Shown: piece by piece, positions 51,015 through 61,309 of the stretch
Position numbering within the stretch: the first letter of the stretch is position 1
Layout: every line of letters starts with the position of its first letter
Origin: a virus
Reading direction: 5' to 3' (one strand)
IMG/VR virus record: IMGVR_UViG_3300013094_000027
Span: 28,019 to 92,018 of that record
Length of the DNA stretch: 64,000 bases
Notes under the pieces: model-generated
Told to the model about the DNA's origin: nothing
Seen by the model: only the letters and a program-made list of their open reading frames with translations
Databases searched by the model: none
Program-made: the position numbers and the translations under genes

Positions 51015-51600
51015 TTACCCTAGCTTTTATGGGTAGTTTGTAAAAGTGGTGTGTCAAGATCCATGCTAAGAGGTGACTAGTCCTCTTACTTTTTATCTTT
51101 GCTCTCATATTGCCAAGTAATAGTAGTTTGCTATTACTTCTTATCTCTTAAGGAGTAAGGTATTATACTTATTCCTTATATCTCACATGTTTTGTCTTCG
51201 ATATTATGTTACTACAACGAAAGAGAAGAAGTTCCATACCACAGGGTAGATTAATATATCCTAGTGAAGCTCTAATAATAGGCTTTTGAGTAAATCTAGC
51301 AATTAGTAAGACTAGATTGAAAGTTGTGCTGTATATTGTAAGGAGTGAAAAAAAGATGAGGGGCGGCAATCCCAAAACTCTGAATTATATGATGTTCTCC
51401 TTAAGAAGAACTATTCACATATAACTTGTATGGTAAGACTTATTATAACTTATACAATGTATGTATTTGGAAAGATAGTCTGGAGTTAAATCGTTCTCCA
51501 CAACTACAACGATTCTTAGGTTTTGATAGTTAAACTGGTGTTACCTGGAAACTATTATAATGGGATGATGTTTGAGAGCAATCATCCCATTATTTTTATT
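51015..51600 (+). ncRNA. Candidate large structured ncRNA
   Basis: No plausible ORF; many hairpins, two H-type pseudoknots and long-range complementarities; strand inferred from context. Confidence 0.45.
51556..51597 (+). terminator. Intrinsic terminator-like hairpin
   Basis: ataatgggatgat ... atcatcccattat followed by T run. Confidence 0.65.
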
Positions 51601-51720
51601 AACTCTTTTATGTTCCTTCAATAGAGTATAAAGAATTGTAAATAAAAGCTCTTATATAGAGTGTATGTGAGGCATGGTAGCGCAACTTATATTGTTTAAC
51701 TTTTTTAAAATCAATTTTTT

Positions 51721-52074
51721 ATGCGTAATTTATTAATGTTATTGGCTTCTATTAATGTAGCTCATAATTCCTCTATTACTATAGGTTTATTAGGTAATGG
51801 AGAAGTTCAAGTTGAAGAATTGGGCAATATGCCTACAAATTATCAATTTGAAGAGGAAGATATTTCAAACCTTAAAGCCTGTTTACAAAGAATTGTAGAC
51901 TACATGGAGAAAGATGAGAGATTATCCTATGTTGAATGGATGGGCAATTCTGGTGTGTTTATTGAAGGATTGGGCAGTGATATTTCTCCTGTTAAATCTG
52001 AAGCATTAAATACAGGACATATTTATTATGCTGTCATTCGTTTGAAAGAATTATTAGCTGAATTACCTGCGTAA
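51721..52074 (+). CDS. Hypothetical protein
   Basis: 117 aa, ATG start with AT-rich leader. Confidence 0.7.
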   Translation: MRNLLMLLASINVAHNSSITIGLLGNGEVQVEELGNMPTNYQFEEEDISNLKACLQRIVDYMEKDERLSYVEWMGNSGVFIEGLGSDISPVKSEALNTGHIYYAVIRLKELLAELPA

Positions 52075-52204
52075 GTAATACATTTAGTTAACCATACTAT
52101 ATTATATGCTTATACTTTACTATATTTAATATCTATAGTAATAGCTGGAGGTATAAAAAACTATATTCGCTCAATATAAAGGCTATTACTATAGATATAT
52201 TAAA

Positions 52205-52258
52205 GAGTTTCTGATGAATCTTTGAAAATTAAGACGAAATATAATATATATCAAACTC
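52205..52258 (+). ncRNA. Hammerhead ribozyme, type I (HHR-1)
   Basis: Stem I gagttt/aaactc; CTGATGA; stem II tctt/aaga (A-C at its base); GAAA; stem III tata/tata; cleavage triplet ATC, cut after 52252. Confidence 0.8.
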
Positions 52259-52271
52259 AAAAAAAAGTTTT

Positions 52272-52565
52272 ATGAAATACATTTATGTTGCTTGGACAGA
52301 TAATGTTCAAATGTTTATGGAATATCCTTGGTTTGAAGAAGAGGCAATTCTTAATATAGATTCTGATTCGGATTACCTTATTCCTGAAGATCGTTATAAT
52401 GAAGTAATGGACGACCTAAAACAACAAGAAGGACTTCAATTACTTATTAAAGCTGCTAATTTGATAGCAACTATTAAATCTGAAGAAGGTAAAGAAAACT
52501 TTGACGACAACTTGGAAAATGAAATTGCTACTTATATAGCAAAACATAAAGTTTTAGATTTTTAG
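52272..52565 (+). CDS. Hypothetical acidic protein
   Basis: 97 aa, starts 19 nt after the HHR-1 cut site. Confidence 0.75.
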   Translation: MKYIYVAWTDNVQMFMEYPWFEEEAILNIDSDSDYLIPEDRYNEVMDDLKQQEGLQLLIKAANLIATIKSEEGKENFDDNLENEIATYIAKHKVLDF

Positions 52566-52880
52566 TTTCTTTATATAGCTTGAATGTTACTTAGAACATT
52601 ACTATTTTTCATCTTGGGTTCTGTGAAGATAATATCAATGCAAATCTTTAAATAATTTTAACCCAAAAAGAATCTTCTGTAGCAGAAAAATAACAATTGA
52701 TTAAAGAGTCAAAAAACAGAATGATAAACTATGCTTGGACTCATAGTAAACATTTTTGTACCTATTCCAAGATAGGTTTGAGTAGATTATCCATTGAGAG
52801 ATAATTCTCGGAGTATATTTTTTGTAATAATCTTACTTCCCAGGTGAGGGAAACATAAATATACTCTTAAATAAATTATT

Positions 52881-53030
52881 TAATGAATAAAACTGTCTGT
52901 AGTAATAACAATAGATGCAACCGAACAATGATCTTCTTTGGGATACGGAATTAGAATAACCTGAGTTAACGAGTGAAGCGACCACATTAAAAGCCGAAAG
53001 TTATTTTTACTACAGCAGTTTTATTTATTA
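52881..53030 (+). ncRNA. Candidate structured RNA closed by a long stem
   Basis: taatgaataaaactg-t-ctgtagtaa-taac pairs with gtta-ttt-ttactacag-cagttttatttatta around about 90 nt. Confidence 0.5.
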
Positions 53031-53033
53031 TTA

Positions 53034-53099
53034 AAGTCATTCCAGGAGACTTAAAAATCGAGTTCTGAAGAGACTGGAACGAAATATCATTATCAACTC
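53034..53099 (+). ncRNA. Hammerhead ribozyme, type I with pseudoknot (HHR-2)
   Basis: Stem I gagtt/aactc; CTGAAGA; G-actggaa-C; GAAA; ta/ta; ATC cut after 53094; loop II CTGGAA complements TTCCAG in the loop of upstream hairpin aagtc/gactt. Confidence 0.85.
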
Positions 53100-53111
53100 A
53101 AACAAATAATT

Positions 53112-53324
53112 ATGCGTACTTATTACATTACTGAACAGTTTGTCTATGCTTCTTTAGAAGATAGTACAGCTATAATGTTACCTGGTAACATGCTTCGTTT
53201 TAATGCTGATGTGTTTGCAAATGCACATTATAGAAATCCTGGTGTTGACAACTTATTAGGTATGAAGGTTAAAGACAATGTTATAACTGTTATACATTGT
53301 GAAACACCTTCTATTGCCTTTTAA
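53112..53324 (+). CDS. Hypothetical protein
   Basis: 70 aa, starts 17 nt after the HHR-2 cut site. Confidence 0.75.
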   Translation: MRTYYITEQFVYASLEDSTAIMLPGNMLRFNADVFANAHYRNPGVDNLLGMKVKDNVITVIHCETPSIAF

Positions 53325-53432
53325 TGTTCTTTTGAGTTACTCTGAACAGATAGAAATATCTTAGTAGGAGTAATTTATATTCTTGGTATTAACCTTTTGG
53401 TGCTTTAAGTTAACCATTATTAATTTATTCTT

Positions 53433-53633
53433 ATGAAAAAAAAAGCTTTAATATTACTAATAGATCTTTACAGACAAGATGCTTACATACAGGAGAGAGA
53501 AAATTATGATTCAAATATTGTTAAGTATCTTTTAAGTAAAAAACTAATAATTGATAAAAAAATTACCAATTGTGGTGTCTTATTCGGTTTAACTGAAAAA
53601 GGCACAAAATTATACGAAAGTATAGATATTTAA
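53433..53633 (+). CDS. Small winged-helix-like protein
   Basis: YLLSKKLI...FGLTEKG wing motif. Confidence 0.55.
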   Translation: MKKKALILLIDLYRQDAYIQERENYDSNIVKYLLSKKLIIDKKITNCGVLFGLTEKGTKLYESIDI

Positions 53634-53806
53634 GTTACTAATGTTTAGCAGAGTTCAAATAACTTTAATCTATAAGGATAATAGAATTATAGTATTATGA
53701 TATAAAGTAACTACCATAGAAAAAGTGTGTGGTGTAACAAAATTGCACTATGGTCATACACGCTATGGTAGTTATTTTATTTTTAAAACAATTTAAAAAC
53801 ACAAAT

Positions 53807-53998
53807 ATGAAACATGTTTACATTGTAAGAGTAGAAATGCTCACAGCAAATGGTTTGCAACCTTTTATGCAAACAAAAGTTTTTGAAACTATTTCGGATG
53901 CACAACAATACCAAGAATCAGTAAATGCAGATGAATATTATAAAAAGCTAAATGCATTTGCTTTTTTGGAAATTGGGGCTTTTATTGAAGAAAATTAA
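53807..53998 (+). CDS. Hypothetical protein (likely start MKHVYI)
   Basis: A-rich leader; KVFETISDAQQY motif. Confidence 0.65.
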   Translation: MKHVYIVRVEMLTANGLQPFMQTKVFETISDAQQYQESVNADEYYKKLNAFAFLEIGAFIEEN

Positions 53999-56437: not shown

Positions 56438-56510
56438 AACCAAGTAGCTTTAATTGGTAGAGCCTCGGATTGTATCGGAGAGGTTAGAAGTTCGAGTCTT
56501 CTCTTGGTTT
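56438..56510 (+). tRNA. Degenerate tRNA-Thr(UGU)-like gene
   Basis: Acceptor AACCAAG/CTTGGTT, D arm GCTT/GAGC, anticodon arm CTCGG-ATTGTAT-CGGAG (G-G mismatch, no nt 26), T arm AGAAG-TTCGAGT-CTTCT; no encoded CCA. Confidence 0.75.
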
Positions 56511-56564
56511 CTCTTTAAAATGGTTAATTAATTTGTTTTTGTAAACTTTAAAATTTAAAAATTT

Positions 56565-57796: not shown

Positions 57797-58160
57797 GGGC
57801 CCATAAGGTTTTGACGGCAAAATGTAAGTATGATTGGCGTGTAAGGACAAGGATATCGTCCTTTAAATAAAGGTATTCAACAATAAATGTAGCTAAAACA
57901 GCAACACAAAGACAAGAAGAAGGTGCACGTATTATCAATATGTGCTTTGCTAATGCACCAATTGCTATAGCAGCCTAATTTCAAAAGACATATTCAAGTC
58001 TTTAAAAGTGAATAGTGGATAATACAGAACAGCTATACACAATGGCCGATAAGCAGTTCAAAACGCATACCTGAAGACAGCAGGAATAAAATTAGTCATG
58101 GTAGTAACTCCCAAGTTAGACATAATTGAGACCTGAGTTCGACTCTCAGCAGGTCCACTA
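57797..58160 (+). ncRNA. ssrA: tmRNA
   Basis: 5' GGGCCCATAAGGTTTTGACGG; 3' T arm CTGAG-TTCGACT-CTCAG then CAGGTCC-A-CTA; G3.U70 pair; pk1 aggac/gtcct; AATAAAT resume signal; tag ORF 57889-57978 ending IAIAA-stop; 364 nt. Confidence 0.92.
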
Positions 58161-58229: not shown

Positions 58230-58299
58230 CATTTCACACACATCTGCTATATCTTTGTTTCTCTTTATTTCTTTAACAATTAAAAACAAATCAAAAATT

Positions 58300-58890
58300 A
58301 TGGTAACACAATATAACAAAGAATACTTCCTTACTCATAGAGGTTGTTATTCAGCAGAAAAAATGGCAGGATTATGTGATAATAATCCACATTCCAATAT
58401 TCAGGAATTTCTGAATTGGGACATATCAATAAAAGATAAGTTCTATTTTGTAAGAAATTATACAGAACTAACAATAAAACAAAAACAGTTATTTGCACTA
58501 ATGTGTGCTAAAGTATCATTGGAGATATATGAAAATAAATATCCTAATGATAAAAGAGTACGTGAATGTATAGAAGCAACTGAGCAGTTTTTGGATGGAA
58601 AAATAACAAAAGAAGATTTATTAATAAAAAGAAATGCTGCTGCTGATGCTGCTGCTGCTGCTTATGCTGCTGCTTATGCTGCTGCTGCTGATGCTGCTGC
58701 TGCTTATGCTGCTGCTGATGCTGCTGTTTATGCTGCTGCTTATGCTGCTGATGCTGATGCTGCTGTTTATGCTGCTGCTTATGCTGCTGATGCTGCTGCT
58801 TATGCTGCTGATGCTGCTACTTATGCTCCTAAATATATAAATAACCTTCTCAATGCATTAAAAGAATTTTGTAAAGTTCATAAAAATTAA
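58300..58890 (+). CDS. Imm5-like protein with Ala-rich repeat (likely start MVTQYN)
   Basis: FALMCA...YPNDKRVRECIEA followed by (A/Y/D) repeat. Confidence 0.7.
   Translation: MVTQYNKEYFLTHRGCYSAEKMAGLCDNNPHSNIQEFLNWDISIKDKFYFVRNYTELTIKQKQLFALMCAKVSLEIYENKYPNDKRVRECIEATEQFLDGKITKEDLLIKRNAAADAAAAAYAAAYAAAADAAAAYAAADAAVYAAAYAADADAAVYAAAYAADAAAYAADAATYAPKYINNLLNALKEFCKVHKN
58636..58827 (+). repeat. GCT-based coding microsatellite (AAY/AAD repeat)
   Basis: Runs of gct interrupted by tat, gat and gtt. Confidence 0.9.
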
Positions 58891-61060: not shown

Positions 61061-61309
61061 ATGACTGACTTTTATATATTAACTACTCTTGCAATGACAA
61101 TGAATTCTGAAGAATTAGTTGATGACTTATCTAATGAAAAGCATTTATCATGGTACAAATCCCTTAGATTGAATCAGAAGATAAATATGAGGTCCTTAGC
61201 TAAAGAAATAACTGGATTCGATTTTAATAGTCTTATAAGAATCTTCGGATTCAGACAATCCATCGGACTTATACATCAAAAATTAATTATTGAAGGATTT
61301 AACGTTTAA
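61061..61309 (+). CDS. Hypothetical protein
   Basis: 82 aa, operonic packing. Confidence 0.6.
   Translation: MTDFYILTTLAMTMNSEELVDDLSNEKHLSWYKSLRLNQKINMRSLAKEITGFDFNSLIRIFGFRQSIGLIHQKLIIEGFNV

Follow-up and report, generated by a model that had tools for sequence, protein, structure and literature searches.

A pseudoknot hammerhead and a putatively weakened type I hammerhead before consecutive small genes of an uncultured tailed phage

Clustered hammerhead ribozymes of prophages flank single genes, and constructs of about 2 kb derived from the native polycistronic RNAs cleave in vitro (PMC3088659). In the halovirus HF1/HF2, a hammerhead lies 13 nucleotides (nt) before the start codon of an early gene, and a mapped 5' end was located no more than 3 nt from the cut (PMC3088659). 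The pseudoknot hammerhead was discovered in the Breaker laboratory (Weinberg et al. 2015, cited in PMC11300833) and has been crystallised (PDB 8YDC; Zhan et al. 2024, PMC11300833). In the 8YDC structure, the pseudoknot stands in for helix II and the A-rich linker contacts helix IV, and the cleavage of this type outpaces that of extended hammerheads (PMC11300833). In fungal and plant RNA viruses, self-cleavage creates the translated 5' end, with cap-independent translation as the effect (PMC13725137). Here, a stretch of 64,000 nt from the IMG/VR virus record IMGVR_UViG_3300013094_000027 (hereafter the window) was analysed, in which two hammerheads, HHR-1 and HHR-2, flank the open reading frame (ORF) 52272-52565 on the + strand; the record carries terminase, portal and capsid genes. 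We consider it rather probable that both are genuine hammerheads, and that the operon RNA is split into separate messages by HHR-2 and by a probably slower HHR-1.

The downstream element, HHR-2, comprised the following parts.

53034-53099, + strand: HHR-2, a pseudoknot (RAGATH-1) hammerhead, from the RF03152 match and covariation
53034-53038 with 53048-53052, + strand: helix IV, from the sequence
53040-53045 (UUCCAG) with 53074-53079 (CUGGAA), + strand: pseudoknot, 6 bp
between helix IV and stem I, + strand: A-rich linker AAAAAUC joining the two, from the sequence
53060-53064 (GAGUU) with 53095-53099 (AACUC), + strand: stem I
53065-53071, + strand: core CUGAAGA
53072 with 53080, + strand: stem II, the lone pair G53072-C53080 with the loop ACUGGAA
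53081-53083, + strand: GAA (GAAA through 53084)
53084-53086 with 53091-53093, + strand: stem III, 3 bp
53094/53095, + strand: predicted cut after C17 (C53094), the 3' product starting from A53095, 17 nt 5' of the ATG at 53112

The core letters of HHR-2 were complete, namely CUGAAGA, GAAA (53081-53084), U53093 and C53094 (a non-G at position 17). At the gathering thresholds of Rfam, only a tRNA was found in the window, and the hammerheads surfaced in the E-value mode. In this mode, HHR-2 matched RF03152 over all 77 model positions at 49.3 bits, with E-values of 7.7e-7 locally and 3.3e-5 over the whole window and both strands. A scan of IMG/VR with the core of the pseudoknot hammerhead gave 40 loci, from which about 21 distinct true examples were extracted, and 16 phage sequences, the window included, were aligned. 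In this alignment, helix IV and the pseudoknot had 90% of their cells paired, and five pairs were changed on both sides. None of 500 shuffles equalled the observed pairing or covariation, and the pairing fell to 14-48% when the partners were slid. For instance, alignment pair 12-52 was C-G in 15 sequences and U-A in the window, pair 14-50 occurred as U-A (8), A-U (3), C-G (2) and G-C (2), and pair 7-24 of helix IV occurred as C-G (10), G-C (4), A-U (1) and U-A (1). Compared with the consensus CCNAG/CUNGG, the pseudoknot UUCCAG/CUGGAA differed on both sides at two pairs, which still pair, and it had six Watson-Crick pairs instead of the usual five. On the evidence of its sequence and of this covariation, HHR-2 is a pseudoknot (RAGATH-1) hammerhead, a catalogued type, and very likely cuts its own transcript between C53094 and A53095. 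The one-pair stem II and the 6-bp pseudoknot, which the original prediction had pointed out in this element (G53072-C53080, CUGGAA/UUCCAG), were both present. The odd traits flagged there are the defining traits of the catalogued family, and the 3-bp A-U stem III is the sole real oddity.

The upstream element, HHR-1, had a different architecture.

52205-52258, + strand: HHR-1, type I hammerhead whose stem II is a conventional hairpin, from the descriptor and homologues
52205-52210 (GAGUUU) with 52253-52258 (AAACUC), + strand: stem I, 6 bp
52211-52217, + strand: core CUGAUGA
52218 with 52235, then 52219-52222 with 52231-52234, + strand: stem II, an A52218.C52235 mismatch followed by 4 bp
52236-52238, + strand: GAA
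52239-52243 with 52247-52251, + strand: stem III, five A-U pairs
52252/52253, + strand: predicted cut after C17 (C52252), the 3' product starting from A52253, 19 nt 5' of the ATG at 52272

All fixed core letters of HHR-1 (CUGAUGA, GAAA and UC) were intact, and the three stems followed each other in the type I order. The reading of the sequence bore out the original prediction of two co-oriented type I hammerheads with intact cores, of a near-identical stem I in both (GAGUU(U)/(A)AACUC) and of an A-C at the base of stem II of HHR-1, which is A52218.C52235 at positions 10.1/11.1. The specificity of the motif was evaluated with a type I descriptor consisting of the core, a hairpin stem II with 10.1/11.1 left free, GAAA, an A-U-closed hairpin stem III, a non-G at position 17 and stem I. 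Applied to the real window, a loose form of this stem II descriptor found only HHR-1 and a weak site at 61107; HHR-2, with its 1-bp stem II, was recovered by a relaxed descriptor and not by the stem II one. No match at the grade of HHR-1 was obtained in 300 dinucleotide shuffles of the window, or in 4000 shuffles of the local 5.1 kb (equal to 40.8 Mb).

Homologues of HHR-1 were searched for with a pattern of its stem I and leader in which a long stem II was required. In IMG/VR, this tighter pattern gave a sole match, which was false, and the matches listed for a loose shared-stem I pattern in IMG/VR were mostly noise. The true homologues came from JGI metagenome contigs (lake and peat) and comprised L179/L181, L176/L177 and L180. 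Stem-loop II of L179/L181 was the same as that of HHR-1 in 17 of 18 letters, but had G10.1 and therewith the canonical G10.1-C11.1 pair. The pair 10.1-11.1 was G-C in the aligned columns of L179/L181 and L176/L177, and also in L180 once an extra U was allowed for; accordingly, G10.1 occurred in all three homologue lineages and A at 10.1 only in the window. The extra U of L180 (204-270, - strand), itself a type I homologue, lies between A9 and G10.1. Compensatory changes were found at two stem III pairs in L176/L177 and L180, and additionally at the second stem II pair in L180. In this small sample of four sequences, three pairs were changed on both sides and 89% of the cells were paired, and the pairing fell to 19-48% with slid partners. 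Outside the hammerhead, the homologue contigs had no similarity to the window phage, so the hammerhead is a conserved island. As Hammerhead_3, HHR-1 scored 22.4 bits (cut-off 48.5) with a 3-bp stem I hairpin in the type III register; this register was rejected because the homologues share the type I fold. The comparison places HHR-1 among conventional type I hammerheads that are so far uncatalogued, from which it is separated by one G-to-A transition at 10.1.

The leaders that would be left on the two downstream products were as follows.

52253-52271, + strand: leader AAACUCAAAAAAAAGUUUU, 19 nt, A-rich, its first 6 nt being the 3' strand of stem I of HHR-1
53095-53111, + strand: leader AACUCAAACAAAUAAUU, 17 nt, left on the product downstream of HHR-2

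The coordinates verified that the predicted cuts lie 19 and 17 nt before the ATGs at 52272 and 53112 and leave A-rich leaders, as had been proposed. The stem I common to both ribozymes is followed by CAAA, and both predicted cuts coincide with the 5' edge of the AAACUCAAA leader. The same AAACUCAAA start was found 3' of the hammerheads in L025 (two), L046/G002, L112, L179, L176 and L180. In L025, L112 and G002, the copies of stem I and AAACUCAAA belong to pseudoknot hammerheads, and in L179, L176 and L180 to the type I homologues. In total, one stem I with its leader preceded nine unrelated ORFs, distributed over seven lineages from phages or metagenomes. No kinship among the downstream ORFs was detected in a comparison of 13 proteins (best E-value 0.05).

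Two relatives of the window phage, G001 and G002, were obtained via the terminase; they have late genes in common with it, and the number of proteins in common in the arm of small genes is zero. In both, AAACTCAAA was located 10-22 nt 5' of the start codons of genes that have no ribozyme, at 6 of the 8 occurrences on the small-gene strand in G001 and 6 of the 9 in G002. The small genes bearing AAACTCAAA lie at about 31.9-40.6 kb (+ strand) in G001 and at about 76.5-84.6 kb (- strand) in G002. Its sequence and placement make AAACTCAAA a conserved element of the leader or start site in this phage group. On the small-gene strand of the window phage, the full motif (AAACTCAAA, or AACTCAAA at HHR-2) occurred only at the two ribozymes. 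Since AAACTCAAA was seen before ribozyme-free genes, the predicted cut falls exactly at the 5' edge of a leader that these phages use anyway. Tentatively, the hammerhead and the AAACUCAAA leader might form a portable cassette that phages set before unrelated small genes, though we rate this below an even chance.

The position of the predicted cuts was in line with other phage hammerheads, many of which cut 16-29 nt ahead of a start codon. Among 21 distinct pseudoknot hammerheads of phages, 8 had their cut 21-29 nt ahead of a start codon. The hammerhead of G002 reached 57.8 bits, over the Rfam cut-off, and lies 22 nt before an ORF. G002 keeps its late genes in the same order as the window phage, and its one hammerhead follows on the opposite strand, some 2 kb after the syntenic late genes end, a place equivalent to that in the window. 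No hammerhead was found in G001 with the Rfam models and the descriptor. Tandem pseudoknot hammerheads were present in L025, a 213-kb phage (5605-5683 and 8094-8165, + strand, 2.5 kb apart), with identical stem I and the same leader, and in L004 (2917-2988 and 3583-3696, - strand, about 0.6 kb apart). Two of the pseudoknot hammerheads, that of G002 among them, carried unusual cores.

L046:1501-1578, identical with G002:C1:84603-84679, - strand: pseudoknot hammerhead
L112:7728-7797, - strand: pseudoknot hammerhead

Their cores read GUGAUCA or GUGACCA, so that in two different phages the tertiary pair C3:G8 has become G3:C8; even with this swap, the copy of G002 scored 57.8 bits. Just 5' of the G002 hammerhead there is an inverted repeat of 10 bp, ATTGAGTTTA / TAAACTCAAT (L047:8680-8735, - strand); it repeats letters of stem I of that hammerhead and could compete with the folding of the ribozyme.

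The genes and structures around the two ribozymes of the window were as follows.

52131-52146 with 52182-52197, + strand: perfect 16-bp inverted repeat TATCTATAGTAATAGC / GCTATTACTATAGATA with a 35-nt loop
52272-52565, + strand: 97-aa ORF, from the ORF list
52566-53033, + strand: ORF-free structured spacer, 468 nt, with a negative codon score in all three frames
53112-53324, + strand: 70-aa ORF, from the ORF list

The long genes of this phage, taken as the reference, had a codon score of 0.49 +/- 0.09 bits per codon. In frame, the 97-aa ORF scored 0.51 bits per codon and the 70-aa ORF 0.33; off frame, the values were about -1.1 to -1.4 for the former and -1.1 and -1.4 for the latter. The codon usage of both ORFs after the cuts resembles that of the phage's genuine genes. 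For the 97-aa ORF, the protein search returned only itself and there was no PHROG match, and the 70-aa ORF had no family match. The 16-bp inverted repeat stops 7 nt 5' of HHR-1, and the fold of 52125-52258 had a z-score of -3.84, with 0 of 200 shuffles as good. Once HHR-1 had cut, the repeat would sit near the 3' end of the upstream fragment. The spacer 52566-53033 also folded better than its shuffles, with a z-score of -2.78 for the minimum free energy (MFE). Within it lie a hairpin (about 52808-52870) and a domain of 150 nt (52881-53030) that is closed by a long interrupted stem (z -3.49). The spacer gave no credible Rfam match and had no similarity to G001 or G002; in the RNA bounded by the two predicted cuts, it would make up the 3' portion. 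No terminator-like site was found on the + strand from 51088 to 53853, which makes a single transcript plausible.

From the motifs, the family membership, the homologues and the position relative to the ORFs, all of which are shown here, we infer cleavage, co-transcription and effects on translation and stability. A single operon RNA of about 51.1-53.85 kb would be cut by HHR-2 between C53094 and A53095 and, probably more slowly because G10.1 has turned into A, by HHR-1 between C52252 and A52253. The conventional type I hammerheads to which HHR-1 belongs form a sister group that uses the same stem I. Because nearly the whole of a type I ribozyme lies 5' of its cut, the folded ribozyme and the stable hairpin domain preceding it would stay on the upstream RNA, which would end in a structured 3' end with a 2',3'-cyclic phosphate. 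The downstream gene would be set free with a 5'-OH and with a leader that is short, unstructured and A-rich and begins with AAACUCAAA. In this way, the operon RNA would be divided into separate messages, the translation start regions would be freed of upstream structure and the decay of the messages would be uncoupled. Such processing of an operon RNA, which the original prediction also put forward, had already been hypothesised for hammerhead clusters of phages (PMC3088659); it is plausible here and fits the comparative data. In eukaryotic RNA viruses, self-cleavage of the leader enables translation (PMC13725137), which is an analogy and not evidence for phages.

Several results weigh against this processing of the operon RNA by two ribozymes. 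HHR-2 stayed under the gathering score of RF03152 (49.3 against 56.3 bits); this 7-bit shortfall is due to 12 deleted stem III positions, and the core is not at fault. Its stem III of three A-U pairs was the shortest among the phage comparison set. Hammerhead_1 (RF00163) gave no match on G000, G001 and G002, and for HHR-1 none even at E <= 10; no Rfam hammerhead model usefully supports HHR-1. The search with hammerhead models that the original prediction named as a check thus recognised HHR-2, albeit below the cut-off, and gave no useful match for HHR-1. Moreover, the A52218.C52235 mismatch of HHR-1 falls on 10.1/11.1, the most conserved stem pair. On inspection, no conserved partner was found for its loop II, UGAAAAU; the lone candidate contact was GUUUU at 52267-52271, which L179 does not have. 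The hammerhead fold of HHR-1 was predicted at -2.0 kcal/mol compared with -3.8 for the MFE structure, which is thermodynamically marginal, and its share of the predicted ensemble was 0.6%; stem I can also be sequestered by a competing hairpin. The fold z-score of HHR-1 was +0.43. MFE folding recovered neither ribozyme, which is expected for a pseudoknotted or junction fold and was not counted against HHR-2. Finally, the promoter scan was uninformative (39 matches compared with 49 in shuffles), so the single transcript is assumed only.

In the strongest rival explanation, only HHR-2 works, HHR-1 is a recently disabled copy with the G10.1-to-A change, no tertiary contact and weak A-U stems, and the RNA is cut once. 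HHR-1 may be slow or inactive, as an A.C mismatch, one transition away, replaces the G10.1-C11.1 pair that its three homologue lineages keep. Perreault et al. rejected candidates mismatched at 10.1/11.1 unless activity was shown; U.U was the best tolerated mismatch and the others were reported to be worse (PMC3088659). The small share of the hammerhead fold in the ensemble and the want of a useful Rfam score point the same way. However, the other fixed positions of HHR-1 are intact and its three stems pair, so that decay has not gone past one transition. Adenine at 10.1 retains the N7 of guanine, which also counts against a disabled HHR-1. Furthermore, variant hammerheads in a phage context kept low but measurable activity (Perreault et al., PMC3088659). 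Whether HHR-1 cleaves usefully in vivo is, judged from these features, close to an even question, and a single cut by HHR-2 remains the most serious competitor of the two-ribozyme reading, possible but on balance doubted by us.

Another explanation shifts the selected function to the upstream RNAs, in which case the ribozymes would define and cap the 3' ends of structured RNAs and yield stable fragments whose ends are a folded ribozyme bearing a cyclic phosphate. The strong structure directly 5' of both ribozymes (z -3.84 and -3.49, and -2.78 for the spacer) is what it would lead one to expect, the spacer before HHR-2 is non-coding by its codon score, and G002 likewise has its 10-bp inverted repeat just before the hammerhead. 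The conservation across phages, however, is 3' of the cut, in the AAACUCAAA leader and the short distance to the start codon. The upstream structures have no common sequence between phages, and no obvious hairpin was seen upstream of the hammerhead in L179 on inspection. We therefore regard this explanation as unlikely.

The near-identical strands of stem I could also aid ligation of the 842-nt RNA 52253-53094, consisting of the leader, the 97-aa ORF, the structured tail and the body of HHR-2, into a circular translatable RNA, a mode as in viroid-like and retrozyme RNAs. Ligases of the RtcB type join 5'-OH and 2',3'-cyclic phosphate ends, such as the 842-nt fragment would carry. But the conserved leader, found after single hammerheads as well, accounts for the shared stem I, and the data favour a cassette more than a circular RNA. 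In addition, the HHR-1 3' strand AAACUC is one A longer than its HHR-2 partner GAGUU, and because of this register offset a chimeric hammerhead would bulge at the cleavage site. Perreault et al. sought circular or spliced products of tandem phage hammerheads and found none (PMC3088659). Circularisation of this RNA is thus very improbable. That HHR-1 is a chance look-alike in AT-rich DNA, as its nearly all-A-U stems, weak Rfam scores and positive fold z-score might suggest, is practically negligible, because zero equivalents occurred in the 40.8 Mb of shuffled local sequence and homologues with compensatory changes occur in unrelated contigs. Processing of the operon RNA by both ribozymes is accordingly the reading that we prefer.

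The setting of the locus was that of an uncultured tailed phage. The window covers bases 28019-92018 of the 92-kb record (CheckV completeness 76%) and has a G+C content of 29.8%. Among the - strand genes from 47 to 48821 are those for the terminase, the portal and the major capsid protein, as well as for virion proteins of very large size. Past 48884, the + strand carries small, mostly orphan ORFs with long non-coding stretches in between, an arm oriented opposite to the structural genes. The genes of this arm are presumably expressed early, as judged from their position. The closest named capsid proteins were those of a Leptolyngbya phage and a crAss-like phage, at an identity of only 22-26%. 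The locus had zero blastn matches in 50,697 phage records, and a search for related loci with the 97-aa protein and a 463-aa protein found nothing. Other features of the small-gene arm were the following.

56438-56511, small-gene arm: tRNA-Thr, anticodon UGU, from Rfam at gathering thresholds
58071-58160: tmRNA-like match, very weak (16 bits)
58634-58827: (TGCTGCTGA)n tandem repeat, about 20 copies, within the ORF 58255-58890

A sub-threshold Rfam match to 'isrG' (41.4 bits, cut-off 100) resulted from the (TGCTGCTGA)n repeat.

What hammerheads do in bacteria and phages has yet to be proven, and the locus is a compact system for testing it: stem I and the leader are common to a fast pseudoknot type and a conventional type that is presumably weakened by nature, each at a fixed short distance from a start codon. 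The A10.1 allele, compared with the G10.1 homologues, could reveal whether phages tune the rate of cleavage, and the shared AAACUCAAA leader hints that the cut is positioned to make a particular 5' end. The knowledge of the ribozyme classes themselves is unchanged by the locus.

Compared with the pseudoknot (RAGATH-1) hammerhead family, RF03152, HHR-2 has every architectural element from helix IV through the C at the cut site; it differs in its 3-bp stem III, for which the Rfam consensus has 9, and in its pseudoknot, whose letters are unusual and form an extra Watson-Crick pair. HHR-1 resembles the conventional type I (RF00163, clan CL00010) in its open stem I, hairpin stems II and III and full core. 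It is different from that type in the A.C at 10.1/11.1 and in having no recognisable loop-loop or pseudoknot contact, and its nearest relatives are the uncatalogued metagenome sequences L179, L176 and L180. Like the fungal and plant RNA viruses (Lopez-Galiano et al. 2026, PMC13725137), the locus has a type I hammerhead in a 5' leader, but those are eukaryotic RNA viruses, whereas here the element is carried by a bacterial DNA phage. The layout is that of the clusters of Perreault et al. 2011 (PMC3088659), with co-oriented ribozymes between small phage genes and cuts just before start codons. It differs from them in combining two architectures with one stem I and leader. Both ribozymes are of known types and the layout has been known for phages since 2011; the locus is a fresh example, whose points of interest are the two architectures in one operon, the natural A10.1.C11.1 allele and the cassette-like spread before unrelated genes.

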